In this document: in pieces, positions 1 to 16,749 of the stretch
Numbering within the stretch: the first letter of the stretch is position 1
How the letters are laid out: each line of letters starts with the position of its first letter
Assembly (NCBI GenBank): GCA_964549395.1
Contig: CAZJVY010000006.1
Span: 6,972 to 70,971 of the forward strand
DNA length: 64,000 bases
Reading direction: 5' to 3'
From: an uncultured Armatimonadia bacterium
GTDB lineage: Bacteria; Armatimonadota; Zipacnadia; Zipacnadales; UBA11051
The notes under the pieces: model-generated
The model's database searches: none
The model's input: only the letters and a program-made list of their open reading frames with translations
What the model was told of the DNA's origin: nothing
Translations under genes and position numbers: made by a program

Positions 1-4
1 CTGT

Positions 5-274
5 GTGAAGCAGATCAAAGCGGCGGACCGGCAGCTCGTCACCCCGACCGAAATGTGCCTCGCGCAGCCGGCAATGCATGTCGTCAATGAGGCGTTCGAG
101 CCGGTGGCCAAGCTCCTCGCGCTGGATGGGGGAATTCTGACACTGGACAGGGATTTCATGGCGGCACAGTTCCCCGACGCCGATGGTGACGGGGCGATTC
201 GGGCCTATATCATGGAGTTCGGCCCCGGCGATACAGTCTTGGTACCCAGCTCCATACGCTACCAGAGACACTAG
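5..274 (+). CDS. hypothetical protein; possibly the 3' part of a gene that begins upstream of the window (the ORF opens with GTG at the window edge)
   Basis: Open frame from position 5 to a stop at 274 with protein-like composition. No recognisable motif. Confidence 0.25.
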   Translation: MKQIKAADRQLVTPTEMCLAQPAMHVVNEAFEPVAKLLALDGGILTLDRDFMAAQFPDADGDGAIRAYIMEFGPGDTVLVPSSIRYQRH

Positions 275-335
275 CCGGACCGACGACACCGTATCCGGAT
301 CGCTGTGGACTGATGGCGCGGCCACCGTTGCGACG

Positions 336-1778
336 TTACGTGGGGTTGCGGTTGCGGATTTGCCTCAGGATGTCCCAGTAAGCGCCGCGCGCTCCGGCGG
401 CGACGGCATCCACCAGTGGCTGGTTGTCATCGTAATCGTAGTCACGGTCATCGCCGCTGCCGCCGAAGAAGAAGCGCTGGTCACCGGCGATAACGTCCGA
501 CAGGAAGCCTGCCGCCTCAGCCGGCGCGCCCAGTGCCGGCGCGATGTAGAACACGGGGGCCAGCAGGTCCTCGTTCCCCTCTGTCTCCCCCCAGAGCGCC
601 GGGTTATCCTCCAGAGGGCCCTCGCTCGCGACGAAGTGGGCCATTCCTGTGCCCGCATAGACCCTCACTCCCAGAGAGATGCCCATGCAGGACGGACCGG
701 CGGCCTTCGCCCCCTCGATGGTCTCCCTGGCGGTCTCTTTCGTCTCGCCCGGCGCGCCGATGAGCAAGTCGAGCATTACCACAATCCCCTGCTCGTGGCA
801 TAGACTGACGGCTTCCGATATGGCGTCATGTGAGAAATCGCGTCCCAGACGCGCCAGCATCTCGTCATTCCCGCTGTCTGCTCCGAAGTTGATCCCCGCG
901 CAGCCCGCACGCCGCATCGCCTCGGCAAGCTCTCCCGAGAACGGATGTGGCGCGAGATATGCATACCACCGCGTCTTCTCTCCCAATCCCCGGCCGGCGA
1001 GTTCCTCGCAGACGGCCAGGGCATGATCCTCGGGAATGTTGAATTCGCTGTCGCACAGGTGATAGACGTCAATCCCTTGACTAAGCAGGTTCTGGACCTC
1101 GTCCGCGACGGCCACCGGCGAGCGCCGCCTCACGCGGTGGCCTTTGCCCAACGGGTCCGCGCAGAAAATGCACTTCCGGTCGCATCCGCGCTTGGTCTCC
1201 AGTCCCATCTGCCCGCCCTCGTTGAAGTAGCGGCGGTTATCTATCATATCGCGCTGCAGAGCGGGGCCGTCCGCGATGTCCGGCCAGGCCGGGGCGTTAC
1301 CTTCGATCCCATCGCCATCGTGCCACAGCAGCCCGGGCACATCCTGCGGGCTCATCTCGCCTCGCAGGGCTTGCAGCAGAAGCGGCACTGCTTCCTCGCC
1401 GTCGCCGAGCACACCGTAGTCAATTCCGGCTGCCCTCATGATGGCTTCCGGTGCCACGCAGAACCCCGCACCTCCTGCCACGACGGGCGCATCGGTGGAC
1501 TGCCGAATGGCGGCCACGACCTGCTGCAGTTCAGGCACGAATGAGTGCGAGCTGAGCAGCATGCAGTTGTCGGTGTTGCGGAATGTGATCCCGACCAACT
1601 GCGGGTCCGTCTCTGTGACGCGCCGCTGCAGCGCACCTGTCGGGTCGGCCTCAAGACACAGGTCCACGATTTCGACTTCCATGCCCCGGCGGCGGCAGGC
1701 CTCGCCCACGTACTCCAGCCCCAGCGGCGCAATCGGCGGCTTGGTCACATTTGAGTTCACCAGCACAATGCGAGACAT
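336..1778 (-). CDS. B12-binding domain / radical SAM protein (class B radical SAM)
   Basis: CDRKCIFC (CX3CX2C) radical SAM cluster motif. N-terminal MSRIVLVNSN...PPIAPLGLEY Rossmann-like B12-binding-type start. Start moved to the ATG at 1778, preceded by a GAGGTGAAG RBS. Confidence 0.7.
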   Translation of the reverse strand: MSRIVLVNSNVTKPPIAPLGLEYVGEACRRRGMEVEIVDLCLEADPTGALQRRVTETDPQLVGITFRNTDNCMLLSSHSFVPELQQVVAAIRQSTDAPVVAGGAGFCVAPEAIMRAAGIDYGVLGDGEEAVPLLLQALRGEMSPQDVPGLLWHDGDGIEGNAPAWPDIADGPALQRDMIDNRRYFNEGGQMGLETKRGCDRKCIFCADPLGKGHRVRRRSPVAVADEVQNLLSQGIDVYHLCDSEFNIPEDHALAVCEELAGRGLGEKTRWYAYLAPHPFSGELAEAMRRAGCAGINFGADSGNDEMLARLGRDFSHDAISEAVSLCHEQGIVVMLDLLIGAPGETKETARETIEGAKAAGPSCMGISLGVRVYAGTGMAHFVASEGPLEDNPALWGETEGNEDLLAPVFYIAPALGAPAEAAGFLSDVIAGDQRFFFGGSGDDRDYDYDDNQPLVDAVAAGARGAYWDILRQIRNRNPT

Positions 1779-2078
1779 TAACCGCTTCACCTCAAGCTTC
1801 GTGCGGCCGTGGAACATCACGCCTACGCCGCACGTCCAACCTGACAGTATGAAGATTTGGTGTCGTCACGGTAACACAGTGGCCGCGTAGGGCCGGACTG
1901 CTGCCTATCCCATTGGTTTGCCGCCGAGCGCCGGCGTACCTGCTTCCGTAGAGGCGCGTCCACAGAGTTCAGGGCGTCAGGCCCCCGGCAGTGCAGACCG
2001 GCGGCATAGAAACGGGATTGCAGGCCCGCAGTCATTGCAGTAAACTGGACTGCAGAAAACGCCAGGGAGATATGACAG

Positions 2079-2501
2079 ATGAAGCACACGGTGCTATTGG
2101 TCGCACTAGTGTTGACCGCATGTGTGGCAGGCTGTGGTGGTGGCGGCGGTGGCGGCGGCTCGACCAATGCTGCGCCCACGGTCACCAGCTTGTCGGTCGT
2201 GCCGAGCCAGTTGGGGTACACGGGCGGCACGGTCACGATCACGGCTCAGGCCACGGACGACAGTCAGGTGGCATCGGTGTCCGCGAGCGTTGCCGGGCCC
2301 TCGGGCACGGAGACGGTAGCTCTGACCGCAGCCGGCAACGACTATGCAGGCACCTATACGGCTGCTGGGAATCTCGGCCCTGGCGCTGCCGCGTATAGTG
2401 TCAGTGTCACAGCTACGGACGACGATGGAGCGACCAGCGATGCGGCCACTGCCGGCTTCACGGTGGCCTCCATCTCCCCCCCCCCCCCCCGGCCCACCTG
2501 A
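2079..2501 (+). CDS. small secreted lipoprotein with poly-Gly linker and Ig-like Thr/Ala-rich domain, C-terminus PPPPRPT
   Basis: Signal peptide with lipobox LTAC, followed by CGGGGGGGG. GGGAGA RBS 8 nt upstream. Ends in a poly-Pro tail encoded by a C15 tract. Confidence 0.55.
   Translation: MKHTVLLVALVLTACVAGCGGGGGGGGSTNAAPTVTSLSVVPSQLGYTGGTVTITAQATDDSQVASVSASVAGPSGTETVALTAAGNDYAGTYTAAGNLGPGAAAYSVSVTATDDDGATSDAATAGFTVASISPPPPRPT
2476..2490 (+). repeat. homopolymeric C15 tract inside the 3' end of the lipoprotein CDS (encodes PPPP)
   Basis: 15 consecutive C counted directly in the sequence (2476-2490). Confidence 0.9.
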
Positions 2502-2702
2502 TATCTGAACGGTTGCATCCCCCTTTGAGGGCCTCCTTTGGCGCACGAGAGCCTGCGTTCTTCCTCGGATCGCGCCTGAACTTGCATGAGCGGTATGCTT
2601 GCGCAACAAAGCGGAGCCATTGGAGTATTCCAACAGGGAAATCACCCACCCCTGACGAACAGTAGCCGGTGAACCGAATCTTGTCCCATCGGAGGAACGT
2701 AG

Positions 2703-5700
2703 ATGCTGGAAAGGTGCGTCGTGAGTTTGCTGGTGGGTTTGCTACTTGTCATGGCAGCTTCCACAGCGGGTGCCAAGAAGTGCAGTCGCTTCGTCACCGC
2801 GCAGATGCGTGCGAACGCGCTGAAGAACATCGAAACACTTGACTGGGCCGCCGGTCAGCAGAAGAGCGCCATTGCCGGAGCCCAAAGCTGGCTGCAGATG
2901 AGTGACGATCAGCTTTGGGAGATGGTACCCTCCCAGGAATTGCCACGCGCCGACATTACCAACAAGGGGGTCCTGTACGAGGGCAAGCGGCCCGGCTGCC
3001 CCAACTGCGGTGAGGCGGCGCTGAAGTATGGCATGAGGTGGTGGAAGTACGACGCGAACAATGCACCGTGGAAGGCGAAATGTCCCAACTGCGGCCAGGT
3101 CTATCCCAAGAACGATTTCTGGGCGTTCTACCAGACGGCGCTGGACGAACACGGCATGTTCCGGCGCGAACTGGGCGACCGTTCTCTGCTTTTCAACGCC
3201 GAGCACCCCGACCCAAACGACCCCTTGCACAAGCTCTATGTGGACGACGGCTACGGAATGGTGGACGAGAAGGGGGATACGCATCACATCATTGCTGCTT
3301 ACTGCCAGTGGGTGCAGTGGCCCAGAATCTACGGGGCCATATCGGCTCTGGCGCAGGCCTACACGCTCACCGGCGACAAGGCGTATGCCCACAAGGCGGC
3401 CGTGCTTCTGGACCGCGTCGCCGACGTGTACCCCGAGATGGATTATCTGCCCCTGCACAAGTTGGGCTTCCAGCACAGCCAGGGCGGCACCGGAGAGGGC
3501 CGCATTGAGGGATGCATCTGGGAGACCGGCGCGGGGCAGAGGTTCGCCCGCACCTACGACCTGATCTACGATGGCATCCAGGACGATGGAGAGCTGGTGG
3601 CGTTCTGCTCGCGGAAGGCGGAGCAGCACAAACTGGGTGATAAGAGCAGCATCGCCGCAATCTGCCGGCACATTGAGGACCATCTGCTGATGGAGATACT
3701 GGCTTCGTGCAGGGATGGCCGCATCAGGGGCAATACCGGCATGACACACGCCTGCCTGGCGAATAGTGCGATAGCCCTGGACAGAGAGAAGATCACGGAG
3801 GAATGGCTGAACTGGCTATTCGATCCATGCTATCCGGGTGAGTATAACCAAAGCAAGGATCCGGTGCCCTGGGTGTTGGTCGAAGGCCTGGACCGTGACG
3901 GAATGGGCGGCGAATGTGGGGGATATGGCTTCATCTGGACCCGCTACATGCAGCAGCTCGTCGAGATCATGTCATCCTACCCGGACTACAAGGCACATGA
4001 CATGGTGGCCGAGTTCCCGAAGCTGAAGCAGAGCTTCCTGGTAGAAGCACGTCTCAACGTGCTGGATTCCACCGTCCCGAACATCGGCGATAGCGGCGCG
4101 ACCGGCACATGGGGCCGGGCGGGTAACGCGGCCACCTTCATGCGGGCCTACAAGCTCTACAGGGACCCTCGCTTCGCCCAAATGGCCTGGCGCGAGCACG
4201 CGGAGTACAAGTCATCACTGCGGCTCCCGGATGACATCTTCGCTCCGGACCCCGATGCTCTCATCCGCGAGGCGGAGAAGGTCGCTCTGGCCGAACCATT
4301 CAAGCTCAAGTGCGACCATCTTGGGCGCTACGGCCAGGCGGTGTTGCAGACTGAGCAGCCTGCAGGCGGCCGTGCCCTGTGGATCCATTACGGCTACAGC
4401 AAGGGGCACTCGCACTGCGACTGCCTCAACATTGGTCTCTACGCAGAGAACATGGACATGCTTCCCGAGCTGGGCTATCCGGAGTACACAGGCTCCTGGC
4501 CCAAGCGGGGAGCCTGGACATCCAATACCATCAGCCACAATACGCTGGTGGTGAATGACACGAGGTCCGGCTACAGCCCCGGCGGCAGAATCAGCCTATT
4601 TGCAGTACAGCCGCCGCTGCGGGTGATGGATGTCAGCTCCCTGACGGCCTATCCCGATATGCAAACCTACCGGCGGACGGTGGCGCTGGTGGACGTCTCG
4701 GACACCGACAGCTACGTGTTCGACGTTTTCCGGGCCCGTGGCGGCAAGAATCATCGTCTCTCCTACCATGGCCCTGCGGAGAATGCGACTGTTGCCGGTC
4801 TGTCGCTGGTCAAGCAGCCGACGGGCACCTTTGCCAGTCCGGACGTGGAGTTCGCCACCCTCGATGGTGAGCAGGCCGATTTCTACAAGAGCAGCGGCTT
4901 CACATACCTGTACGATGTCGAACGCTCGCCTGGCGCTGTGGCTGGCGGGTACACGGTGGACTGGAAGGCCGAGGACCTGCGCGGCCGCATCAAGGAGGGC
5001 ACGGAGCCGCACCTGCGGCTGCACGGCCTGACGGCCTGCGATGCAGTGGCCCTTGCCAGCGGCGACCCGCCCCAGAACAAGTCCGGGAATCCCCGCCGCC
5101 TGCGCTACCTGATCCAGAGCCGCCTGGGTGAGAACATGGAGAGCCAGTTCGTGACCGTACTGGAGCCGTATGACACGACCCCGTTCATCAAACAGGTTCG
5201 CGTCCTGAAAGTCGAGCACGATGCGGACCATAATTCGGTCGCGGCGGTAGCGGTCGAGCTTGCGGACGGCACGACTGACATACTCATCAACTGTGAAGAG
5301 CCGACCCAGGTGACGGTCGAGGGCGGCATCGAGTTCAACGGCCGGATCGGCTTCCTGAGGCTCGTGAATGGGCAGATGAAGCTCATGCGCATGAGCAATG
5401 CCACACTGCTTAGCTACGGCGGCGTCACGCTGGCCGCGGATCAGGCCGCCTACAAGGGCAAGGTCGTCAAGATTGACGCTTCCGACGCGGAGAACAACCT
5501 TGTCTTCCTCGACCCGCCGCTTCCGCAGAAGGCCGATCTCGTAGGCGGGACGATACATTTCGGCAATGCGCTGCCTCTGGACACCAGTTATGAGATACGA
5601 GCCGTGACGCCCGAGGGCATTTCCACGGGCGACATCACGATCATCCACGGCTTCCAGGATAAGGGGGACTTCGCGGCCGGCCATAAGTACCTGGTCAATG

Positions 5701-5747
5701 TCGGGGATGACTACATGGTCCCATGCAGCGTCGGCCTGGACCGCTAG
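2703..5747 (+). CDS. large secreted heparinase II/III-like (polysaccharide lyase-like) protein, paralog 1, with embedded double CPxCG zinc ribbon
   Basis: N-terminal signal peptide. GHSHCDCLNIGLY...LPELGYPEY motif resembling the GHxHxD motif of the heparinase II/III family (from memory). CPNCG-x26-KCPNCGQVYPKNDF zinc ribbon at aa 99-139. GGAGGA RBS. Confidence 0.6.
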   Translation: MLERCVVSLLVGLLLVMAASTAGAKKCSRFVTAQMRANALKNIETLDWAAGQQKSAIAGAQSWLQMSDDQLWEMVPSQELPRADITNKGVLYEGKRPGCPNCGEAALKYGMRWWKYDANNAPWKAKCPNCGQVYPKNDFWAFYQTALDEHGMFRRELGDRSLLFNAEHPDPNDPLHKLYVDDGYGMVDEKGDTHHIIAAYCQWVQWPRIYGAISALAQAYTLTGDKAYAHKAAVLLDRVADVYPEMDYLPLHKLGFQHSQGGTGEGRIEGCIWETGAGQRFARTYDLIYDGIQDDGELVAFCSRKAEQHKLGDKSSIAAICRHIEDHLLMEILASCRDGRIRGNTGMTHACLANSAIALDREKITEEWLNWLFDPCYPGEYNQSKDPVPWVLVEGLDRDGMGGECGGYGFIWTRYMQQLVEIMSSYPDYKAHDMVAEFPKLKQSFLVEARLNVLDSTVPNIGDSGATGTWGRAGNAATFMRAYKLYRDPRFAQMAWREHAEYKSSLRLPDDIFAPDPDALIREAEKVALAEPFKLKCDHLGRYGQAVLQTEQPAGGRALWIHYGYSKGHSHCDCLNIGLYAENMDMLPELGYPEYTGSWPKRGAWTSNTISHNTLVVNDTRSGYSPGGRISLFAVQPPLRVMDVSSLTAYPDMQTYRRTVALVDVSDTDSYVFDVFRARGGKNHRLSYHGPAENATVAGLSLVKQPTGTFASPDVEFATLDGEQADFYKSSGFTYLYDVERSPGAVAGGYTVDWKAEDLRGRIKEGTEPHLRLHGLTACDAVALASGDPPQNKSGNPRRLRYLIQSRLGENMESQFVTVLEPYDTTPFIKQVRVLKVEHDADHNSVAAVAVELADGTTDILINCEEPTQVTVEGGIEFNGRIGFLRLVNGQMKLMRMSNATLLSYGGVTLAADQAAYKGKVVKIDASDAENNLVFLDPPLPQKADLVGGTIHFGNALPLDTSYEIRAVTPEGISTGDITIIHGFQDKGDFAAGHKYLVNVGDDYMVPCSVGLDR

Positions 5748-5782
5748 CACCGCACTTTGCAGTCCTAACGCGATGTTGTCTC

Positions 5783-5817
5783 TTGCCTGTCGAGCAATCG
5801 GCAGGCAATTTGTTTTG
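5783..5817 (+). terminator. candidate intrinsic terminator after heparinase-like gene 1
   Basis: Stem TTGCCTG / CAGGCAA (7 bp, 12-nt loop) followed by TTTGTTTTG. Confidence 0.35.
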
Positions 5818-5961
5818 CGCTGTTAGACAAAAACCGCACGCGAGAACACACTAAGACACAGGTATGTGTGTGTCGTCGAGGCGCAGTACCACGCGCAACG
5901 TATTCCGTGAGAGTCATGCCGCACTCGCCGGCATTGGCATTCGGGAAAGGGGCTTCTGTCT

Positions 5962-7167
5962 ATGGGCCTTTATCGGTACTCAGCGGATGACGGAGATATC
6001 CTGAGAAGTGGCGAGGTCTCAGCGGCCAGCTTGCCGCAGGCCATCAGGAACTTGCAGTGCCGTGGCCTGCGCCTGAATGAAGTCGCCGCAATGAGCCGCG
6101 CAGGCGAGATGTGGGGGCGTCGGCATGAGATCGAGCGGGTGTGGCTGTACCGTCATCTGGCCGATCTGCTGGCCTCCGGCGTGACGCTGTCGGCAGCGCT
6201 GGAGGTGCTCGCCCAGGATGCGCCATGTTCGGCAGACGCAGTTCGCTTGCGCACCATGTCCCAGCTTGTCGCCGGCCAGGGCCTCACGCTGTCGGAGGCG
6301 ATGGAGCAGCACCCAACCCTCATCGGCAGCTACGGAATCGCCGTGGTGCGCTCCGCTGAGCAAGCCAACCGCCTTCCCGAGAGCCTGCGCATGCTCGCCG
6401 CACACCTCGACAACAGCAACCGCATCCGCGAGCGCTCCATGACGCCTATCGTTTACCCCGCCATCATCCTGATATGGATGGGTGTGGTGTTCGTGTTCCT
6501 GACGACCTTCATACTGCCCAAGTTCATGGACCTATTCCTTGAGTTGGGCATGACCCAAGACAAGTTCCCGCTTCCTACGCTCATGGCCATCAGAGTGAGC
6601 AACGCGGCCCCCTTCTTTCTGTTCTGGCTCGTAGTGTTGCTGCTGGCGTTCGCGCTTTTGCGGGTGTTCTTGCGGCGATCGAAGCGGGTACAGCTCGATC
6701 TGGCGATGTGGTCGCTGTGGATGCCCATTTTCGGGCGGCTGAATCGGGACTGTGCAACGGCACGCGTACTTGGCGTGCTGGCCTTGGCACTGGAAGCCGG
6801 AATGCCGCTGGACCGAGCGCTTGAGGCGGCCGGCCCTGCTGCTGAAAACGAACTGATGAATCTAGCGATGCGCAGGGCGGTGGATCGTGCCCGCCGTGGA
6901 TATTCGGCCGGCAAATCAATCGCCGGTGCCGGAATTCTGCCGCCGGCACTTGTCTGGCATTTGCAGACGGCCGAGAAGTCCGGACATCTGGCGGCGACCT
7001 GCCAGGCCGCCGCGGAGACCTACATCGCCCGTGTCGAGATGCACACCGTCCGCACGGCGGCAGTTCTCGAGCCGCTTCTCATCATATTCGTTGGCATATG
7101 CGTCGGCTTCGTCGGCCTCAGCATGTTCCTGCCGTTGGCCGGGATTATCGGAGAGCTGTCATCATAG
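5962..7167 (+). CDS. gspF: type II secretion / type IV pilus platform protein (GspF/PilC family)
   Basis: About 400 aa with three TM segments and two repeated cytoplasmic domains, the typical GspF layout. Immediately upstream of the GspE ATPase. Confidence 0.8.
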   Translation: MGLYRYSADDGDILRSGEVSAASLPQAIRNLQCRGLRLNEVAAMSRAGEMWGRRHEIERVWLYRHLADLLASGVTLSAALEVLAQDAPCSADAVRLRTMSQLVAGQGLTLSEAMEQHPTLIGSYGIAVVRSAEQANRLPESLRMLAAHLDNSNRIRERSMTPIVYPAIILIWMGVVFVFLTTFILPKFMDLFLELGMTQDKFPLPTLMAIRVSNAAPFFLFWLVVLLLAFALLRVFLRRSKRVQLDLAMWSLWMPIFGRLNRDCATARVLGVLALALEAGMPLDRALEAAGPAAENELMNLAMRRAVDRARRGYSAGKSIAGAGILPPALVWHLQTAEKSGHLAATCQAAAETYIARVEMHTVRTAAVLEPLLIIFVGICVGFVGLSMFLPLAGIIGELSS

Positions 7168-7217
7168 ACCAGCACAGATGTCTTCGCGGTAGGTAGCTGC
7201 CGAAGGGAGAAGCTGAA

Positions 7218-8732
7218 ATGTGGTTATTCGAGCCGCTGACATGTGAGCAAACCGTCCCGGGTGACAGGAGGTGGCTGCATCTCTCACCTGACGGTCTGGC
7301 GTTGAGCGAGGCCGGTAAGGTGGCTGGCGACACATCATATGCCCTCGCGGACTACGGCGCAATCTCCGAGGTCCTTCTGCGCGGCGGCCGCCGGGCCAGT
7401 CTGCGGCTCGCCTTCGCCGATCACCGCAACCCGTGGGTAGTGCGTGGAGTGCCGCGACCACATGCAGAATGGGCGCTGCACACGATAAGCGGATATCGTA
7501 AGCTGACACGCTGGGCGCTGAGCGAGGAGGCGAAGGCACCCCTGACGTTTGACAAGATAGCGGCTCGCGTGAACATGTACGCCGATGACATGCCCCTGCT
7601 CGGCAATTTGCTTATCGCCCAGGCGATAGCTCATGCGGCCAGCGACATGGATCTGGAGCCGACGGGAGACGCCTACGCCCTCCGCTACCGCGTTGACGGT
7701 GCGGTGTTCTCCGTGGCCGGGATGCCCAGGACTGCTGCCGAGCGCCTGCTGCGAATGCTGAAGAACCAGGCGAATCTGCAGGCGCACCGCTCCGACATCA
7801 CCCAGGAGGGCCGCATCCGGCTCGCGGCGCAGACCGGTCCGGTTGACCTGCGCGTAACCATCATGCCGGGCATAGCGGGGGAGAAGGTCAACGTCCGTCT
7901 GCTCAACCCCGCTACACAGCTCTTCGGCCTGGATGAGCTGGGCATGAGCGGCCCGCAAGTGGCGCGGATGAAAACGCTCCTGTCTGCACCGACCGGCGCG
8001 GTGGTGCTGTGCGGGCCGGGTGGCGCCGGCAAGACGACAACGATCTACGCCGCACTCACCTACCTGGCGGGCCTGGGGCCCGGACGCGCCATCTCCAGCA
8101 TCGAAGACCCGGTGGAATTCGATCTGGAGGGCGTTTCTCAGACACAGGTCGGTGCCGGGCTGGACTTCGCGAAGGCGCTTGCGGTGTTGCTGCGCCAGGA
8201 TCCGGGGGTGGTGATGGTCGGCGAAATCCGCGACCCCGAAACCGCACAAATCGCCATGCGCGCGGGGATGACCGGCCAGCTGCTGCTCACAACCATGCAT
8301 GCCAGCGGGCCGGAGCTCGTGATCCCGCGCCTGTTCGACCTGGCGGTCGAGCCGTACATGATCAGCTCGGCGTTGGCGGCCATTGTTTCCCAACGGCTGC
8401 TACGCAAGGTGTGCGAAAGCTGCGCTGCAACCTGCACTCCGAGCGCGGAGGAACTGGCCGCTGCAGGGATCACTTCGGAAATGGCCGCGGGCGCTACGTT
8501 CAAGACCGGCAAAGGGTGCCCCGCATGTCATGAGACCGGCTACAAGGGGCGCATCGGCATATTCGACCTGACGGCGATTGACGAAGACACGGCCAATCTG
8601 ATAATGGCGCGCAACATGGCTGCCCTGCGCATGAAGCTGACAAGTGACGGGTTGCGGGCCGCGGCGTTTGAGAAGGTCAAGGCCGGCGTCACCGACATCG
8701 CCGAGGTCATCCGCGTGCTGGGAGTGAGGTAG
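7218..8732 (+). CDS. gspE: GspE/PilB-family secretion ATPase with atypical N-terminal domain
   Basis: Walker A GPGGAGKTTT, Asp box IEDPVEF, Walker B VMVGEIRD, His box LLLTTMHASG, C-terminal tetracysteine CESC...CPACHETGYKGR. Confidence 0.85.
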   Translation: MWLFEPLTCEQTVPGDRRWLHLSPDGLALSEAGKVAGDTSYALADYGAISEVLLRGGRRASLRLAFADHRNPWVVRGVPRPHAEWALHTISGYRKLTRWALSEEAKAPLTFDKIAARVNMYADDMPLLGNLLIAQAIAHAASDMDLEPTGDAYALRYRVDGAVFSVAGMPRTAAERLLRMLKNQANLQAHRSDITQEGRIRLAAQTGPVDLRVTIMPGIAGEKVNVRLLNPATQLFGLDELGMSGPQVARMKTLLSAPTGAVVLCGPGGAGKTTTIYAALTYLAGLGPGRAISSIEDPVEFDLEGVSQTQVGAGLDFAKALAVLLRQDPGVVMVGEIRDPETAQIAMRAGMTGQLLLTTMHASGPELVIPRLFDLAVEPYMISSALAAIVSQRLLRKVCESCAATCTPSAEELAAAGITSEMAAGATFKTGKGCPACHETGYKGRIGIFDLTAIDEDTANLIMARNMAALRMKLTSDGLRAAAFEKVKAGVTDIAEVIRVLGVR

Positions 8733-8734
8733 TA

Positions 8735-8992
8735 ATGCGCCGGATCGCGTCAGACATCTACTGGGGCCTGTACGGCCTTGCTCACTACGTGCAGTTCCTC
8801 GTTCTCGCAGCACTGGTGTTGCTGCCGGTTGCGGCGTTCACCGTAACGACAATGCACATCGGCGCCCCCATGCTGCATGTGCCACTGCTGGTCGCAGCCG
8901 GCCATTTCTTGGTCCTGGGGCTGTTGGGTTACGGCATATACTACCTGCCCGCGCAGCTCGAGAGTAGAGTCGCTTCTCCCGAGGATGAATAG
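8735..8992 (+). CDS. small 2-TM membrane protein of unknown function
   Basis: ATG 3 nt after the gspE stop with a GGGAGTGAGG RBS. Two hydrophobic helices. Confidence 0.4.
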   Translation: MRRIASDIYWGLYGLAHYVQFLVLAALVLLPVAAFTVTTMHIGAPMLHVPLLVAAGHFLVLGLLGYGIYYLPAQLESRVASPEDE

Positions 8993-8994
8993 CA

Positions 8995-9351
8995 ATGCGC
9001 TCTGCCCCTGACGCACCGACAACCTGGGACAAGCTGGCCGACGCGATGCCGACATTCGCGCATTGGTGGGCGGTGCTGGCTGACCTGCCCGGCTATCTGG
9101 TCGAGTGGTGGCCCGTCGGGAGCATGTGGCTGCGCTTTGTTTGCGTGCTTGTGCTGGCCATCGTATTTGTGGCATTGTTCCTGTTATGCGGCATTGGAGG
9201 GCTGGCATGGGCGGGTGCGCCGGTGATATTCCTTGGAATGGGGATGTGGCTCTGGCAGCGCAACGCCCGCACCAGAGCTGACCGCTTCTGGTACTACAGG
9301 TCGGCCCCGCTGAGAAGTGACATAGCCTTCCCGGAGGCCGATGACGAATGA
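8995..9351 (+). CDS. small 2-TM membrane protein of unknown function
   Basis: Starts 3 nt after the previous stop. Trp-rich with two hydrophobic helices. Its stop overlaps the next start (ATGA). Confidence 0.4.
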   Translation: MRSAPDAPTTWDKLADAMPTFAHWWAVLADLPGYLVEWWPVGSMWLRFVCVLVLAIVFVALFLLCGIGGLAWAGAPVIFLGMGMWLWQRNARTRADRFWYYRSAPLRSDIAFPEADDE

Positions 9352-9737
9352 GACGGGGAGCGACACTCATCTCGACATTGGTGGGAATGGCCATCCTGGC
9401 CGCGGTGCTGGGGGCCACGGTACACATCTACTCTCTCGGCAGCCTCGCCGCCGGCGTCGCCGAGAGCCGCAGCATCGCTCTAATGGTTGCTGAGACACAA
9501 CTGGAGACCATGCAGGCGGAAGGATATGCAGCGCTTCCTGCAATCGGCGAGTATCCTCTGCACGTGCCGATGCTTGGCAAACTGCCGGGAGCAGCGGGAA
9601 CGCTCACGGTCGCTCAAGGGCCGGACCCGCAAAGCCGCACGGTCAGTGTGAAGATAGCGTGGCAGCAGCGCCCCGGACGCCCCACTTCAGCCGTCACCCT
9701 CAGCCGCATTATCGCCGCCGGGGGGATGAGCCGATGA
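9348..9737 (+). CDS. minor pseudopilin-like protein (GspI-like; non-canonical N-terminus lacking Glu+5)
   Basis: RRG|ATLISTLVGMAILAAV hydrophobic N-terminal helix. Translationally coupled within the operon. Confidence 0.45.
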   Translation: MRRGATLISTLVGMAILAAVLGATVHIYSLGSLAAGVAESRSIALMVAETQLETMQAEGYAALPAIGEYPLHVPMLGKLPGAAGTLTVAQGPDPQSRTVSVKIAWQQRPGRPTSAVTLSRIIAAGGMSR

Positions 9738-10165
9738 ACCGCAGGGGCATCACGCTGCTGGAGACACTCATCGCAATCGCGGTCTTCACCGTGCTCATCT
9801 CGTTGGTGCTGAGAATGTTCTTTCTCGGTGACAGGGCCATGATGCGCAGCGAGGCCGGGCTGAAAGCGACGTTGGGCCGCGTCGCCCTGCAATCCCAGTT
9901 GCGCAATGATATCTGGATGGCAACGCAGTTCCAGAGTGCCGCCGATGACATGGCAACATTCATCATGCCTGACGGGACTGTTGCGATCTATGCGCCTGCT
10001 GCAGGTGGCAAGGTATCGCGCACCTGCAGCGGCGAGGAGACTCTGTACAAAGGCACCTTGGTGTTCTCGGAGGGCAAGCACGGTCTGATAGCAGTGCTCG
10101 GCCAGGACACCGCCGAGTGGGGCTTCGCAGCCCGGATGCGCAATAAGGCGCGTGAGCGGCGATGA
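9734..10165 (+). CDS. pseudopilin with prepilin-type N-terminal cleavage/methylation motif (GspH/J-like)
   Basis: MNRRG|ITLLETLIAIAVFTVL with Glu at +5. Start placed at ATG 9734, overlapping the previous stop (ATGA). Confidence 0.6.
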   Translation: MNRRGITLLETLIAIAVFTVLISLVLRMFFLGDRAMMRSEAGLKATLGRVALQSQLRNDIWMATQFQSAADDMATFIMPDGTVAIYAPAAGGKVSRTCSGEETLYKGTLVFSEGKHGLIAVLGQDTAEWGFAARMRNKARERR

Positions 10166-10623
10166 GATGCAGCAGGCGAAGAGGAGCGGCATTGCTGCTA
10201 GCGGTGATTCTCGTAGGCACCGCGGCGATGCTGGGCATGGCCGCATACGTGACGACCGTGGCCGTCGGCGCCGCCCGCGTGCAACACCAGCGCGATACGC
10301 TGCAGTGCGTCTATGCGGCGGAGAGCGGCATCGAACTGGCCATGGCGCGCGCCAACCGGGGTGTCATCGCTGATGGGCCGATAGCCGGCAGCGTCGGCAC
10401 CGCGCTCTTCACCGCCCGCGCCGTGCAGACAGACGGCAAGCTGACCATCACCTCCGACGGCATCCAACAGCGCCCCGGACGCGCGCAACTGGTACGCCGC
10501 ATCGAGGTGGTATGCCGCCGTTCGAACGGCACGTACCAGATCAGCCGGTGGCGGACGTTGCCGCCGCCCGAACCCGAAGCGATTGAGCCGGCACCGATTG
10601 GCCCGCAGGAGGAGAACCGATGA
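10162..10623 (+). CDS. minor pseudopilin-like protein (GspK-like, no Glu+5)
   Basis: RRRG|AALLLAVILVGTAAML N-terminal hydrophobic segment. ATGA overlap with neighbours. Confidence 0.45.
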   Translation: MRCSRRRGAALLLAVILVGTAAMLGMAAYVTTVAVGAARVQHQRDTLQCVYAAESGIELAMARANRGVIADGPIAGSVGTALFTARAVQTDGKLTITSDGIQQRPGRAQLVRRIEVVCRRSNGTYQISRWRTLPPPEPEAIEPAPIGPQEENR

Positions 10624-11180
10624 CCTACCGGCGCGGCTTCATGTATGCGGATGTGCTCTGCACGCTGGCCGTCATCGGCCTCATGTACGCCCTGGTGATG
10701 GGCTACGCAACGCGCGCGGTGACGCATACCCGGACTGCGGCATGTGCACACAACATGCACGAAATCGGGGTGGCACTACGCGCGTATGCATTGGACTATG
10801 GCGGCGCCTTTCCGGCGCAGCAATGTGGCCTGGAAGCCCTTTGGGACAAGTATGCGGCAGACAAGGGGATTCTAGTGTGCCCGCAGGTGGAGGTTCTTGC
10901 GAAAACGCAGAAGGACGACGTGCCGCCATCGCGGGTGGCGGGCCGCACTGATTTACTGGTGGACTATGTCTATCGCGGCGGCCTCTATGGCGATGACCTG
11001 CCGTCTCTCCCCGTTGCGATGGACTACCTGGCCCGACAGCACCAGGGCGGCGCGAACGTGTTGTATCTGGATGGGCATGTGCAGTGGCGCGCCTTCCCCG
11101 AGACGCACATCTTCAGCAGGCAAATGCTCACCTCCGGGGCGCTGGACGGAACCCCGCCGCTACGGGGGGATAAGCCATGA
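10620..11180 (+). CDS. prepilin-type N-terminal domain protein, DUF1559 family (H-X9-DG type)
   Basis: RRG|FMYADVL N-terminus. Characteristic C-terminal LYLDGHVQW (DGH) motif. Confidence 0.65.
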   Translation: MTYRRGFMYADVLCTLAVIGLMYALVMGYATRAVTHTRTAACAHNMHEIGVALRAYALDYGGAFPAQQCGLEALWDKYAADKGILVCPQVEVLAKTQKDDVPPSRVAGRTDLLVDYVYRGGLYGDDLPSLPVAMDYLARQHQGGANVLYLDGHVQWRAFPETHIFSRQMLTSGALDGTPPLRGDKP

Positions 11181-11692
11181 AACGCGGCTTCATACTTGTT
11201 GAATTTGCGAGTGCCGTGGCGATCATTGCTATTCTGGCGGCCATCCTGTTTCCGGTCTTCGCGCGAGCCAGGGAGAAGGCCCGCCAATCGAACTGCCTCA
11301 CCAACATGCTGAACGTCGGAGTGAGCCTGCGCCAGTATGCCGCCGACTACTGCGGTGGCTTTCCGCCGAACGATCTCGATTTCACACCCCTACTCCACAA
11401 GTACCTGCCCGACGAGCGGGTGCTCGACTGCCCCAGCACGACTCGCACGTTCGATGGCACCGAAGGCGACTACTCCTACAAGGGCGGCTATCGCGACGAC
11501 GACCGTGGCGACCTGGTTCTGATGATGGAGCGAATCCTCAATGCCCACAACGAGGGCTGCAACTATCTTTGCATAGATGGTCACGCGAGGTGGTTCAAAG
11601 CTTCCTCTCAGTGTGTCCCGTCCGATGTAAAGTCAATGCCCGGGGTTGACACAAGCCCCTTGGGCAATTCATTCGGAGAGTTCACGCCATGA
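11177..11692 (+). CDS. prepilin-type N-terminal cleavage/methylation domain protein, DUF1559 family
   Basis: MKRG|FILVEF...IAILAAILFPVFARAREKARQSNC hallmark N-terminus. C-terminal CIDGHARW. Confidence 0.75.
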   Translation: MKRGFILVEFASAVAIIAILAAILFPVFARAREKARQSNCLTNMLNVGVSLRQYAADYCGGFPPNDLDFTPLLHKYLPDERVLDCPSTTRTFDGTEGDYSYKGGYRDDDRGDLVLMMERILNAHNEGCNYLCIDGHARWFKASSQCVPSDVKSMPGVDTSPLGNSFGEFTP

Positions 11693-12348
11693 AACGGCAG
11701 CATATCATAAGAATAGTCGGCAAGCGCGCATTCTGTCTCGCGGACTTGCTGATAACCATAGCAATGATCGCGATCCTCGCCGCGATTCTGTTTCCGGTAT
11801 TCGCCCGCGCCCGCGAGAAGGCGCGAGCCGCGACGTGCACGAGCAACCTGGTGAATATCGCGCTCGCCCTGCGCAACTATGCCGCAGACAACGACATGCG
11901 CTATCCGCCGCGTGACAATGACCTGTCCCCGCTGTGGCCGGTGTATGTCAACACCCGCCTGACCTTTGCCTGCCCCAGCATATCGGCCGGCAAGCCGATG
12001 GGAATGATGCCGGCGGACGAGCCTCCGCAGCCTCCCACTGGTGGACCGCCACCTCCTCCGGATGTTTCGACTACGCCGCCGCCCGGACCGCCTGTACAGC
12101 AGCCGCCACCAGCGGCCATGCCTCCGCCGGAGGACGCACCTGAGGTGACGCTGGAAACGGGCTATTTCTACGTCAGCGGCTACCGCTACGACCAGTTCAT
12201 ACGCCGGATGCCGCTGTCGGGAGACTCAGGCGCAAGCCGGCACAATGACAGGGCCAATGTGCTCTTCACGGACGGCTCGCTTGGACTGTGGACAAGAGCG
12301 GACTACCTCCGGGCAGGGCTGCAACGCTATGCATGGATGGATGATTGA
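11689..12348 (+). CDS. DUF1559-family prepilin-type protein with proline-rich linker
   Basis: IAILAAILFPVFARAREKARAATC. Pro-rich insert PPQPPTGGPPPPPD...PPPGPP. C-terminal FTDGSLGLW. Confidence 0.7.
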   Translation: MKRQHIIRIVGKRAFCLADLLITIAMIAILAAILFPVFARAREKARAATCTSNLVNIALALRNYAADNDMRYPPRDNDLSPLWPVYVNTRLTFACPSISAGKPMGMMPADEPPQPPTGGPPPPPDVSTTPPPGPPVQQPPPAAMPPPEDAPEVTLETGYFYVSGYRYDQFIRRMPLSGDSGASRHNDRANVLFTDGSLGLWTRADYLRAGLQRYAWMDD

Positions 12349-12914
12349 TGCGAACCGGACGGGCCGCAAACAGGGGATTCAGCGGACTTGAGCTGCTCAT
12401 GGTCATGTTGATACTGACCGGCCTGACGGCGTTCGTTGTGCTGATTGGAGCACAGGCACGCTCCAAGGCGCGTGAGAACAACTGCCTGAGCAATCTGAAG
12501 CAGCTCGCGCACGCTGCGGCGATGTACGCCGCAGATTACGGCGGCCGCTACCCCCGCGACAGCTTCGCCAACGGACTGATGCCTTACATCAAGAATGAGC
12601 AGGTACTGCGCTGCCCCACGCAAGGCGTCTGGCGTGGCTCCTTTGACACTCAAGCCGAGTTGCGCGAAGCCGGGGAGAACTTCAGTTGGTATCGGGACGA
12701 GCAGGGCAAGCTGACGGTCATTGACTATTACTTCGTACCCGGTCTGTGCAGCGATGACCGGCCTGACACGATACTAGCATACGATGACATCCCGGACCGC
12801 CACCCGCACAAGTCCTTCAACATGGTGCGGCTTGACGGCGCGGGCTGGAAGCTGCCGGCCGGACGATGGCCCGGCGTTCCTGCTCAGGTCAAGGAGGTTG
12901 CTGGCAATGAATAG
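12345..12914 (+). CDS. DUF1559-family prepilin-type protein
   Basis: RG|FSGLELLMVMLILTGL...ARSKARENNCLSNLKQL. C-terminal RLDGAGW. Confidence 0.6.
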   Translation: MMRTGRAANRGFSGLELLMVMLILTGLTAFVVLIGAQARSKARENNCLSNLKQLAHAAAMYAADYGGRYPRDSFANGLMPYIKNEQVLRCPTQGVWRGSFDTQAELREAGENFSWYRDEQGKLTVIDYYFVPGLCSDDRPDTILAYDDIPDRHPHKSFNMVRLDGAGWKLPAGRWPGVPAQVKEVAGNE

Positions 12915-13446
12915 ATGTGGATTTACGCTGATAGAACTGCTGGTGGTAATCGCGATTATCGCGATCCTGTCCGCCATGCTGATGCCGTCGTACTCGACCA
13001 CCAATGACCGCAGCCGCGTGGCGGAATGCAACACGAATCTGACCTCGATCTACCTGGGTATCCAGATGTGGGTGGAGGATCACGGGACGCGCCCCGAGAG
13101 TCTGCAGCAGCTCTATGAGAAGGGATACGTGACCGACGAGTCCATCCTGCGCTGTACAAAGACCGGCGCGGAGTACTACTACAATCCGGCCGCGGGGAAG
13201 GACGAGATACTGGCCGCCTGCGTGCATCCCCATACTGAGAGTGGCAAGCGCCCGCACTCGTTCAGGCAATCGTATGCTGCGCTGCTGGGCGGCGGCAGGC
13301 TGGTCGAGATCGGTCGCAAGACCTACTCCTTGCCTGACTACGGCGTTAAGGAAACGCCCGAGGAAGAGGAGAACAGGACACGGATTCCGCCGCCTGGTCC
13401 TCCTCCATCCGCTCCTCCTCCGCCACCCCCACCCCCATCCCCATAG
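12907..13446 (+). CDS. prepilin-type N-terminal cleavage/methylation protein (DUF1559-like) with poly-Pro C-terminus
   Basis: MNRCG|FTLIELLVVIAIIAILSAML. Start at ATG 12907, overlapping the previous stop. Ends PPPGPPPSAPPPPPPPPSP. Confidence 0.6.
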   Translation: MNRCGFTLIELLVVIAIIAILSAMLMPSYSTTNDRSRVAECNTNLTSIYLGIQMWVEDHGTRPESLQQLYEKGYVTDESILRCTKTGAEYYYNPAAGKDEILAACVHPHTESGKRPHSFRQSYAALLGGGRLVEIGRKTYSLPDYGVKETPEEEENRTRIPPPGPPPSAPPPPPPPPSP

Positions 13447-13599
13447 TGCTGTTCTCTTGCAGATGGACAAACGCCGGCCGCTCGCGTGGCCGGCGTTTGC
13501 GTTTGGTGTTTTCCCAATCGTGGAGGCCAAGGCCGCTTGGCCGGCGAAATTGAGCCATCGCGGAAGTCCGATGTACCAGCCGCAGAAGGGGGCAGTCAC

Positions 13600-16500
13600 A
13601 TGCGCATCTGTAGTCTGATCTGTCTGATTATGGGAGGAATACTCATCATGAGCGGACTTGTCTTGGGCGGCGCGGTTGAGGATGAACCGTTGGTGGACTG
13701 GTCACTGTGGGAGAAGTACCGCAAGACGGTCCAGCACCCGGCCGGCTATATCAATGCACAAGACCTGGAAAACGCGCGGGAAAACATCAAACGTTATGAT
13801 TGGGCGCGCGATTTCGCCAAGTCCGCCGAAGACACCGTGCTCCCGCACCTGCAGCGGCTGACGCCGGAGTTCATCGAGAGCATGATACCGACCACGACGT
13901 GCATTCCGTGCTACCAGTGCCCGGCGTGTCACGACAAGGGACTGCCCGGTCACCCCGGTGGGGAATGGAGTTGGTCGCTGGACAACCCCGACGTCATAAC
14001 GTGTCGGCGCTGCGGCACCGTATTCCCCAATGACGAGTACCCGGAGACTATCGTGTTGGAGTGCAAGTCGGAAGCCGGCAAGGGCCAGAAGTTCAGCTTC
14101 TATGGCGCTAAGACTTTCAGGCAGTGGGGCTATCCCAACTACCGCCCCAGCTTCTCTAGCGGCATCAGGGCCCAGAAGATAGGCTGGTGCAAGAGCATGG
14201 TCTACCGCCTCGCGCGAGCCTACGCGCTGACCGGCAAGCCCGAGTACGCCGAGCCCACCAGGCTGCTGCTTCTGCGCTTTGCGGAGGTGTATCCCAACTG
14301 GCTGCTGGTGTCCACGTACGGCGAGATTGCCGACATGGACCCGCACGTGGCGGCCTTCAGCATGGACAGCCTTCCCGAGGATGAACTGGTGCACCCGCCC
14401 AACAAGCCCGACCGCAAGCTCTACAACGGCTCGTGGGCGGGCTGCAGATGCGGCGGCGGAGGCCAGGAGGGCTATGCGACCGGCATGTTCCTATCGGCGT
14501 ACGAGTTGACCTACGACGCCAGGAAGGCCGATGGCACGCCGCTGTACAGCGAGGAGGAACGCATCAAGATCGAGCACGACCTGATCCTGGAAAGCTGTGT
14601 GCACCTCGTCGCCGAGAAGCGGATTAACAACAAATCGGTCGGCAACCGCATCGCAGTGGCGAATGTCGGCATCGCTCTGGGGCATCCCGGCTTCGTGCGC
14701 TTCGGCCTCGAAGGCTGGGACCTGACCATGAATAACTGGTTCCTGGCTGACGGCTGCACGCCCGAATCGCCGGCATACGCGCTGATGAGCCTGGGGGGAG
14801 TATACTCACTAGGACAGTCAATCCGTGGCTACTCCGATCCACCCGGCTACACGGATGAAAACGGCAAGCACATCGAGGGGCTGAACCTCTACGAAGGCAG
14901 GTACAAGCTGGTCTGGCAGCGGATGCTGGAGGGTCTACAGGGCAATCTGGTCTATCCCCCGTATGCCGATTCCTATCGCACCTCGGGCATCGGTACGCGC
15001 TTCGCCGAGTTGCTGGCGGCCAATTACCCCGACAACCCGCAATGCCTGGCACTGCTGAAGGCGTATGCCGGCGATGACCTGGGCAAATGCGACCAGGAAA
15101 CGGCCATCTTCTTCAGGAGGCCGGGCCTGGAAGAGAAGCAAGCCCCACCGCTTCATTTTGACGACAACTTCTTCCCGATACTCTGTCTGGGGCAGGTGCG
15201 CACCGGTGAGGATGGCCGCACATCTCTGGCGCTGTTGAGCGCCACTCACTCGGGCGGACATCATCATGTTGACAGCCTCAACCTGTACTACTGGAAGGAC
15301 GGGCAGGAACTGCTGACAGACCTCGGCTACCTCTGGGATCACCCGAAGGCAGGCATGACCCGTCGCACCTTCTCCCACAACACCGGGATGGTTGACCTCA
15401 AAGAGCAGAAGATGAAGGGACGCGGCGGGCAATTCCACCTCTTCCATACCGGTGACAGCGTCAAGGTGATGGAAGCGTCCTCCAACGCATACGACGGTGC
15501 CGATGTCTACCGCCGCACGGTCGTGCAGATTGACCATGCGCCTGGGAACTCCTACATTGCCGACATCTTCAGGCTGCGTGCCGATGGCTCGCGCGACCTG
15601 GTCTATCACGGGCCTAACAGCGATTACGAAGTCTCCGGCATCCAGTTGCAGCAGGGCGACATAGTCCTCGCCGCCGAGAAGCAGATGCGCTTCGGCGTGC
15701 GCTTCCACGTCACCGGCAAGACGGATGAGATCTACGTGGACGATGTGAGTATCAAGCTTGCCGACGGGCGGGAGCTGGCAGCCAATCCCTCCGCCTCGGA
15801 GTTGAGTGCGAAGGGGCAGCTTGTCGGCTGGGGCCGCTACGGTGGCAGCGGAACGGCGCAATCAGGCCCGAATTCACCCGGACGCACTGACGAGCGCTGC
15901 GCCTACCTGAAAATCACCGGCGGAGAGGATGTCAACCAGGCGCTGATACAGGGCGACACCAACGGCTATACGGGTCCGAACGCCCTGGAAATGCCCCTCG
16001 GCAGCGAGGGAAAAGTGAGCTTCTGGATTCGCGGCAATGCCGCCACCTGCAGTGTCGGATTTGTGACCTGGCCCAACGACCCCAATGACCCCGGTGACCG
16101 TGCCCACATCGGCCTCGCTTCAGTGCCTGTCACCGACCAGTGGGTTCAGCACACATTGGACTTCTCGCTCAAGCGCAGCGGCATGGACCTTGGGAATGTG
16201 AAATCGGCGCACAGTCCGGATAGTTGGAGCGCTGTCTGGAAAGTGGGGGATGCCCTGCTGTTCTCGGCGCACCATTGCGGCCAGCGCGGCGAACTGACAT
16301 ACATCGGCGACGGCTGGGGCCAACGCGACTGGCGCAACACCGACATCGGCGCCACCATTCCGTACATCGTCCGTCGCCACAGGCCCGACAGCGGCGTCTC
16401 AGCCTTCGCTACCGTCTATGAGGCCCACCCGCCGGACGCGGCGCTTGTTAAATCGGCCTATCGTCTCGCAGTGCCGGAAGAGCAGCGCGACAATCTGGTT

Positions 16501-16749
16501 GCGCTTGCAGTCGAGACCGCCACGGGCACGGATATCGTCATAAGCCAATTGGACCCGGCGGAGACTGAGCTGGATACGCCTGCAGGAAGGGTGCAGACGG
16601 ATGCCGCTGTAGCCGTCATTGCCCTGCAGAACGGTCGTGTCGTTTTCAGCGCGGTTGCCGAGGGAGCTGCGTTGCGCCTCAACGGGGCGGACCTTGCGGC
16701 CCAGAGACTGCGCGCGGGTGAAGCCCTGGCGGAGCAAGTAAGCGAATAG
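13600..16749 (+). CDS. large secreted heparinase II/III-like protein, paralog 2, with double zinc ribbon
   Basis: Signal peptide MRICSLICLIMGGILIMSGLVLG with a GAAGGGGG RBS. CPACH...TCRRCGTVFPNDEY ribbon. GGHHHVDSLNLYYW...LTDLGY motif. Confidence 0.6.
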   Translation: MRICSLICLIMGGILIMSGLVLGGAVEDEPLVDWSLWEKYRKTVQHPAGYINAQDLENARENIKRYDWARDFAKSAEDTVLPHLQRLTPEFIESMIPTTTCIPCYQCPACHDKGLPGHPGGEWSWSLDNPDVITCRRCGTVFPNDEYPETIVLECKSEAGKGQKFSFYGAKTFRQWGYPNYRPSFSSGIRAQKIGWCKSMVYRLARAYALTGKPEYAEPTRLLLLRFAEVYPNWLLVSTYGEIADMDPHVAAFSMDSLPEDELVHPPNKPDRKLYNGSWAGCRCGGGGQEGYATGMFLSAYELTYDARKADGTPLYSEEERIKIEHDLILESCVHLVAEKRINNKSVGNRIAVANVGIALGHPGFVRFGLEGWDLTMNNWFLADGCTPESPAYALMSLGGVYSLGQSIRGYSDPPGYTDENGKHIEGLNLYEGRYKLVWQRMLEGLQGNLVYPPYADSYRTSGIGTRFAELLAANYPDNPQCLALLKAYAGDDLGKCDQETAIFFRRPGLEEKQAPPLHFDDNFFPILCLGQVRTGEDGRTSLALLSATHSGGHHHVDSLNLYYWKDGQELLTDLGYLWDHPKAGMTRRTFSHNTGMVDLKEQKMKGRGGQFHLFHTGDSVKVMEASSNAYDGADVYRRTVVQIDHAPGNSYIADIFRLRADGSRDLVYHGPNSDYEVSGIQLQQGDIVLAAEKQMRFGVRFHVTGKTDEIYVDDVSIKLADGRELAANPSASELSAKGQLVGWGRYGGSGTAQSGPNSPGRTDERCAYLKITGGEDVNQALIQGDTNGYTGPNALEMPLGSEGKVSFWIRGNAATCSVGFVTWPNDPNDPGDRAHIGLASVPVTDQWVQHTLDFSLKRSGMDLGNVKSAHSPDSWSAVWKVGDALLFSAHHCGQRGELTYIGDGWGQRDWRNTDIGATIPYIVRRHRPDSGVSAFATVYEAHPPDAALVKSAYRLAVPEEQRDNLVALAVETATGTDIVISQLDPAETELDTPAGRVQTDAAVAVIALQNGRVVFSAVAEGAALRLNGADLAAQRLRAGEALAEQVSE

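Follow-up and report, generated by a model that had tools for sequence, protein, structure and literature searches.

The run of fifteen cytosines (C15) at the 3' end of a small lipoprotein gene, in the 64,000-nucleotide stretch of DNA analysed here (the window), probably reflects a real homogenisation, specific to this lineage, of the codons that encode a conserved polyproline tail. The tract would be prone to slippage without being an evolved switch, and changes in its length would have only cosmetic effects on the last residues of the protein. We hold this reading with moderate confidence.

The C15 tract and the lipoprotein gene

Fifteen consecutive C were found at 2476-2490, exactly as an earlier note on this DNA had described, within the final 26 nt of an ORF and beginning in its codon 133 of 140. 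The ORF ends ATC TCC CCC CCC CCC CCC CGG CCC ACC TGA and the protein ...ISPPPPRPT*, with the tract made up of the last two bases of Ser133 (TCC), four CCC codons (P134-P137) and the first base of Arg138 (CGG). This codon reading agrees with the claim, made in the same note, that the run encodes the PPPP of a C-terminal PPPPRPT.

Homopolymers are normally avoided in coding DNA, and G/C runs of 10 or more are prone to slippage. The runners-up in the 64-kb window are one G7 and thirteen runs of 6. No other homopolymer of at least 8 was found in the window, in the extra 2.8 kb of an overlapping JGI contig (L002) or in ~37 kb from four related MAGs, a survey that covers a small part of the genome. 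The number of G/C runs in the window drops ~4.6-fold with each added base (x0.22), and extrapolation of this run-length decay gives ~2e-5 expected G/C runs of 15 or more, so that C15 is not a chance outcome of the 63 % G+C composition. The tract is unusual, and its unusualness alone does not establish a function. A role of the complementary G15 as a minus-strand promoter or 5' element was considered and rejected: the overlapping minus-strand ORFs are without coding bias (GC3 0.61), and the nearest minus-strand gene starts at 1820, ~655 nt off, with the lipoprotein gene in between.

Table 1. Positions of the features of the window discussed in the text.
Feature	Position	Strand	Remarks
C15 homopolymer	2476-2490	+	flanked by T 2475 and G 2491
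Gene for 140-aa lipoprotein	2079-2501	+	ORF; GC3 0.74; dN/dS ~0.31 against L001
GGT/GGC triplet repeat, polyGly linker after predicted lipid-anchored Cys	2124-2159	+	TRF periods 9 and 12
Overlapping stops, CC TGA TAT C TGA	TGA 2499-2501 (3n), TGA 2506-2508 (3n+2)	+	cap 3 or 5 residues past the tract
Open 3n+1 frame, 55-aa extension	2492-2665	+	TAG 2663-2665; read with 13, 16 or 19 C
T2SS F protein	5962-7167		inside cluster 2703-16749
T2SS/T4P E ATPase	7218-8732		inside cluster 2703-16749
Four DUF1559/N-methyl pseudopilin-like genes	10620-13446		inside cluster 2703-16749

The ORF is a real gene, under purifying selection and with a normal GC3. Its dN/dS of ~0.31 was obtained against a 55 %-identical homologue (P0002, locus L001, from an ENA metagenome), and its GC3 of 0.74 compares with 0.70-0.83 in the window ORFs having family matches. 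The encoded protein has the N-terminus MKHTVLLVALVLTACVAGC-GGGGGGGG and is laid out as a signal peptide, a lipobox VAGC (Cys19), a Gly8 linker, an Ig-like beta-sandwich (residues ~31-130) and a Pro-rich tail (residues 131-140, SISPPPPRPT). As in bacterial lipoproteins, a lipobox with its invariant Cys comes directly after the signal peptide (MKHTVLLVALVLTACVAGC-GGG), and the (A/V)GC-GGG motif holds the sole invariant column of a 50-member family alignment, that of the Cys. The lipobox with Cys19 supports the label of lipoprotein given to the gene earlier. The product would be a lipid-anchored protein, possibly at the surface, with the lipidation predicted from the sequence.

An AlphaFold2 model built with a 50-sequence family alignment gave a confident beta-sandwich, with a pLDDT of 98 over residues 31-130. 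The mean pLDDT over residues 131-140 was 95, and the Pro-rich tail is therefore modelled with confidence and not as disordered. Searches of the PDB, by Foldseek and with a sequence profile, returned generic Ig/FnIII/BIg domains only, e.g. RbmA and SiiE, and the fold, PDB and NCBIfam searches with the lipoprotein yielded no function assignment. The Pfam Big_7 profile (PF17957) scored 22.0 bits, below its gathering cut-off of 24.1, and is matched by 24 of the 50 relatives at E ≤ 0.01; a search of NCBIfam found no family covering the protein. With the BIg/Big_7 domains of the SiiE adhesin (PDB 2yn3/2yn5) the lipoprotein shares the same beta-sandwich fold, with weak sequence matches. SiiE-type BIg domains belong to multi-domain surface proteins with Pro-rich linkers, whereas here a stand-alone single-domain lipoprotein with a near-invariant PPPPP(x1-5) C-terminus stays below Pfam gathering scores and has no named NCBIfam family.

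The GGT/GGC repeat that encodes the polyGly linker could be a second potential slippage site, with in-frame changes only. Among the homologues the Gly count at this position ranges from 3 to 12, and such in-frame slippage may be behind this variation in linker length across the family.

The polyproline tail in the family and its codons

An exhaustive HMMER search with a two-sequence profile returned 702 proteins at E ≤ 1e-3. Dozens of them are proteins of 138-165 aa that share the layout of the lipoprotein, and others are long proteins with 2-21 tandem matches to the family profile. A word-index search with the family profile returned 11 proteins, being swamped by the low-complexity words GGGGG and PPPPP. 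Family members (P0009-P0158) come from WS1, Planctomycetes and Armatimonadota MAGs, and at least one from an anaerobic-digester metagenome. As a by-product, the search delineates a widespread, unnamed family of small lipoproteins, with a polyGly linker, one Ig-like domain and a PPPPP tail, which is fit for curation.

Among 50 aligned single-domain members, the lipobox Cys is fully conserved and G20-G22, P135, P136 and P139 are nearly invariant. The consensus ends ...FTVxxxxxPPPPPxx, and the near-invariant C-terminus of the single-domain proteins is PPPPP followed by 1-5 residues, with typical ends PPPPPAF, PPPPPEL, PPPPPL and PPPQPT (the last in P0118). Judged from this alignment, the polyproline tail is a conserved protein feature of the family, a point that the earlier note had missed. 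Since the tail prolines are near-invariant across the family, C15 encodes something that the protein is selected to have. The product of the 15 C frame is family-typical both in its tail and in its length (140 aa, against 138-165 aa in the homologues).

We compared the DNA of homologues from ten loci, which represent seven distinct genes (L001, L008, L009-L015) at a locus G+C of 0.44-0.70. All ten encode their Pro-rich tails in mixed codons, for example ACG CCG CCG CCT CCA CCG or CCG CCG CCG CCG CCC, and the longest homopolymer anywhere in these genes is at most 5, which marks the homopolymer as lineage-specific. Mixed codons are also used in the further polyPro runs of the window (P5 and P8, in pseudopilin-like genes). 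The share of CCC among the proline codons of the window is 0.295, and with the codon usage of the window the probability of TCC + 4xCCC + CGN is ~1e-3 per S-PPPP-R site. By this comparison the homopolymeric encoding is a derived state, a lineage-specific homogenisation of codons.

The usual encoding of polyproline in this genome is illustrated by the pseudopilin-like ORF 12784-13446, which ends PPP..PPP..PPPPPPPP (~13384-13443) in mixed CCT/CCG/CCA/CCC codons, with a CCACCC hexamer repeat detected by TRF. This end is the strongest C>G stretch of the window (C/G = 4.1).

Reading frames and tract length

Tract lengths from 9 to 21 were simulated in silico. With 15 C (3n) the protein ends ...ISPPPPRPT* after 140 aa, and with 14 C (3n+2) it ends ...ISPPPPGPPDI*, as had been claimed. 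With 16 C (3n+1) it continues as ...ISPPPPPAHLISERL... to 195 aa, that is for 55 extra residues, in line with the claim that the stop is bypassed for about 50 further codons. The three stops are listed in Table 1. In all three frames the signal peptide, the lipid anchor and the whole domain are kept. No off-frame meets an early stop that truncates the domain, so the product is not lost, and a classical on/off translational switch is unsupported because the tract lies downstream of the entire folded domain.

A hidden coding region in the 3n+1 extension was considered and rejected. The extension has a GC1/2/3 of 0.58/0.56/0.58, its GC3 being at the level of GC1 and GC2, and it shows no codon-position bias; it is to all appearances accidentally open non-coding DNA. 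The first residues of this frame, PPPPP-AHLI (window 2492-2503, codons CCG GCC CAC CTG ATA), resemble PPPPP-AFQL* in the 55 %-identical homologue (L001 1081-1098, codons CCG GCT TTC CAG TTA). The likeness could go back to an earlier 1-nt slip at the tract, or be a coincidence. As evidence for a past frameshift or for a one-base assembly error it was set aside: it is too short, tails vary widely within the family, and the PPPQPT of P0118 is equally close to the tail read with 15 C.

The JGI contig Ga0116202_10007251 (L002, 6.5 kb) overlaps positions 1-3703 of the window and also carries C15, at its positions 5284-5298. The two contigs differ by 16 SNPs, and 12 of the 15 that fall within ORFs are synonymous, which marks them as real strain polymorphisms and the contigs as different assemblies. 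Every one of the 16 is confined to 173-1635, and the 2068 nt of 1636-3703 are identical; this contrast is compatible with a recombination boundary, with a recent sweep or with a contig chimeric between strains. Around the tract the contigs may therefore stand for a single haplotype, or even stem from shared reads. With no SNPs in 1636-3703, the agreement on C15 speaks against an invented tract and says little on its stability. The JGI metagenome contigs were also scanned with a variable-gap pattern, GGCCTCCATCT-N{3,32}-GGCCCACCTGATA, which catches any tract length. Only Ga0116202_10007251 matched and no tract-length variants were seen among these contigs; the only other tract copy found is therefore C15, on a haplotype identical to the window from 1636 to 3703.

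The tract is internal to its contig, with flanks that are unique and syntenic in both contigs. The second assembly does not differ, no contig end or chimeric junction falls at the tract, and the expected frame is unbroken. An assembly or sequencing artefact that invented the tract, which the earlier note had considered, is very unlikely in view of this internal position, the unique flanks, the C15 of the second contig and a frame that agrees with the PPPP of the family.

In the codon homogenisation that we favour, the usual mixed CCN proline codons would have become uniform CCC in this Armatimonadota-like lineage. Synonymous drift would have made a seed run, which then may have grown by in-frame slippage. 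The homopolymer would be a by-product of coding for PPPP and not an evolved on/off switch. From general knowledge of G/C runs, C15 is expected to be prone to slippage. Length changes would toggle the last few residues only, or add an unselected 55-aa tail; they are confined to the tail because the signal peptide, the lipid anchor and the beta-sandwich are all upstream, and tract-length variants would presumably be functionally near-neutral. As a counterpoint, a 15-mer may have persisted because mutability was selected, and the tails of the two terminating frames (RPT, GPPDI) remain Pro-rich and family-like, as those of a tolerated or evolved switch would.

Phase variation, length error and polarity as alternatives

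C-terminal phase variation, for which the term C-terminal sequence switching is also used, is known from eight genes of Helicobacter canadensis that carry (G)10-14 tracts at their 3' ends, with tract lengths in reads that spread ~3 nt to either side (Snyder et al. 2010, PMC2823697), and from four genes of Neisseria gonorrhoeae, NGK_1211, ispH, mafB and pilin (Zelewska et al. 2016, PMC5320596). Classical translational switches are 5'-proximal, as the poly-G of Neisseria pilC and the A7 tract of Listeria inlA (PMC5320596, PMC2831843). C15 resembles the C-terminal systems in being a long SSR at the 3' end, a G/C homopolymer in the last few per cent of the coding sequence of an envelope protein, and in that its three frames lead to alternative short C-termini or a long extension without loss of the protein (RPT*, GPPDI*, +55 aa). 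It differs from them in encoding a conserved polyPro motif, which by itself explains C-rich codons at this site, and in its host, an uncultured environmental Armatimonadota-like bacterium and not a host-adapted pathogen. A wider repertoire of SSR-controlled contingency genes, as expected of an organism with such switches, was not seen: no other homopolymer of at least 8 accompanies C15 in the sequence surveyed. Whereas the H. canadensis tracts varied in reads, C15 is a candidate by its anatomy and has the same length in two assemblies. With pilC and inlA it shares the presumed mechanism, frameshifts through slipped-strand mispairing at a mononucleotide run; those tracts, however, are near the 5' end and switch the gene off via premature stops, whereas C15 comes after the whole domain and the protein is made in every frame. 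Of the phase or length switch proposed in the earlier note, the anatomy, which fits C-terminal phase variation, holds, and an on/off switch does not, as there is no truncating frame. As a case of C-terminal phase variation, C15 is a weak candidate at best.

In an evolved contingency locus, slippage at C15 would stochastically switch an exposed tail among three forms, namely PPPPRPT, PPPPGPPDI and a basic extension of 55 aa. The protein would be retained while an antigenic or phage-receptor epitope, or else a contact surface, is diversified. The length of 15 exceeds the at least 10 of the H. canadensis C-terminal phase-variable genes (PMC2823697), the 3'-terminal position gives three frames with three different tails and none truncated, the product is a predicted lipid-anchored and possibly a surface protein, and the homopolymeric encoding is unique among the homologues with DNA and improbable by codon usage. 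We nevertheless consider such a locus unlikely, since no length variation was seen (both assemblies have C15 and the pattern scan was without variants), the 64 kb and the loci from relatives contain no other long SSR that would hint at a contingency repertoire, the 3n+1 product results from the translation of non-coding DNA, and the switches documented in the papers cited here are those of pathogens and other host-associated species, while the bacterium here is uncultured and environmental. If the tract length really varies, C-terminal phase variation would extend from host-adapted pathogens to an uncultured environmental phylum, and a conserved polyPro tail would have been co-opted as a mutable element. 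Another reading is that the assembled length is off by 1-3 bases through Illumina or assembler error, the annotated C-terminus then being slightly wrong; in its extreme form the whole tract is an artefact. Long G/C homopolymers are known to cause difficulties in short-read consensus, the two contigs are SNP-free around the tract and may have overlapping read sets, and the PPPPPAHLI... of the 3n+1 frame is loosely like the PPPPPAFQL* of a homologue. This reading is still rather improbable, given an equal length in the 73 kb NCBI contig and in the 6.5 kb JGI contig with its 16 SNPs, and a product of 140 aa with 15 C whose tail is like that of a family member (P0118, ...PPPQPT). Against the wholly artefactual form stand, besides the internal position and the unique, syntenic flanks, the prolines that the family requires exactly there and the length of the tract: metagenome assemblers typically use k-mers longer than 15, and a 15-mer hence makes no false join by itself. 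To return to the homogenised codons that we prefer, if the tract is invariant then a 3'-end homopolymer can be mere homogenised coding of a conserved polyPro motif, and without evidence from reads such runs should be neither labelled a phase switch in annotation nor 'corrected' as errors.

The tract could also act on the genes that follow. The spacer 2502-2702 contains a Shine-Dalgarno-like GGAGGA, followed by the ATG at 2703 of a heparinase II/III-like gene, and the 3n+1 stop lies 37 nt before this ATG. C15 with its C-rich flank would, in this proposal, be a Rho-loading (rut-like) site, and tract length would tune the expression of a downstream polysaccharide-lyase/T2SS-like cluster: ribosomes in the 3n and 3n+2 frames would stop at 2501 and 2508 and leave ~200 nt untranslated, and those in 3n+1 would translate to 2665 and suppress polarity. 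The 78-nt stretch 2460-2537 has a C/G of 2.5, at the 99.8th percentile of the window, though this C excess is almost entirely the tract itself. There is no intrinsic terminator or stable structure between the lipoprotein and heparinase-like genes, and the 3n+1 frame ends just ahead of GGAGGA and the ATG. However, the heparinase-like orthologue of related MAGs is preceded by other genes and not by such a lipoprotein gene, and the polarity itself is purely inferred; we regard this proposal as very improbable. Just as improbable is a coupling through the one repeat, in which slippage at C15 would toggle an exposed polyPro tail and, in 3n+1, relieve Rho-type polarity downstream.

A structured RNA element at the tract was rejected: no terminator-like site, promoter or Rfam match was found in 1700-2900, and the 261-nt stretch 2460-2720 has no unusual RNA fold (z = +1.45). 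The related MAGs, four of Armatimonadota type, were obtained by a search of species-representative genomes with the neighbouring heparinase-like protein as query. The lipoprotein gene is absent upstream of the heparinase-like orthologue in 4 of 4, and hence no orthologous tract was found in them. The upstream neighbours of the heparinase II/III-like orthologues differ (L004 1-483, L005 1-2582, L006 1-159), that in L005 being formate-tetrahydrofolate-ligase-like. These differing neighbours indicate that the lipoprotein and heparinase-like genes are not an evolutionarily linked unit, and that the lipoprotein gene is a lineage-specific insertion between the radical-SAM and heparinase-like genes.

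Within the cluster 2703-16749, heparinase II/III-like proteins (2703-5747 and 13486-16749) bracket the secretion-type genes listed in Table 1, an arrangement suggestive of a pairing between polysaccharide-lyase-like proteins and a secretion or pilus system.
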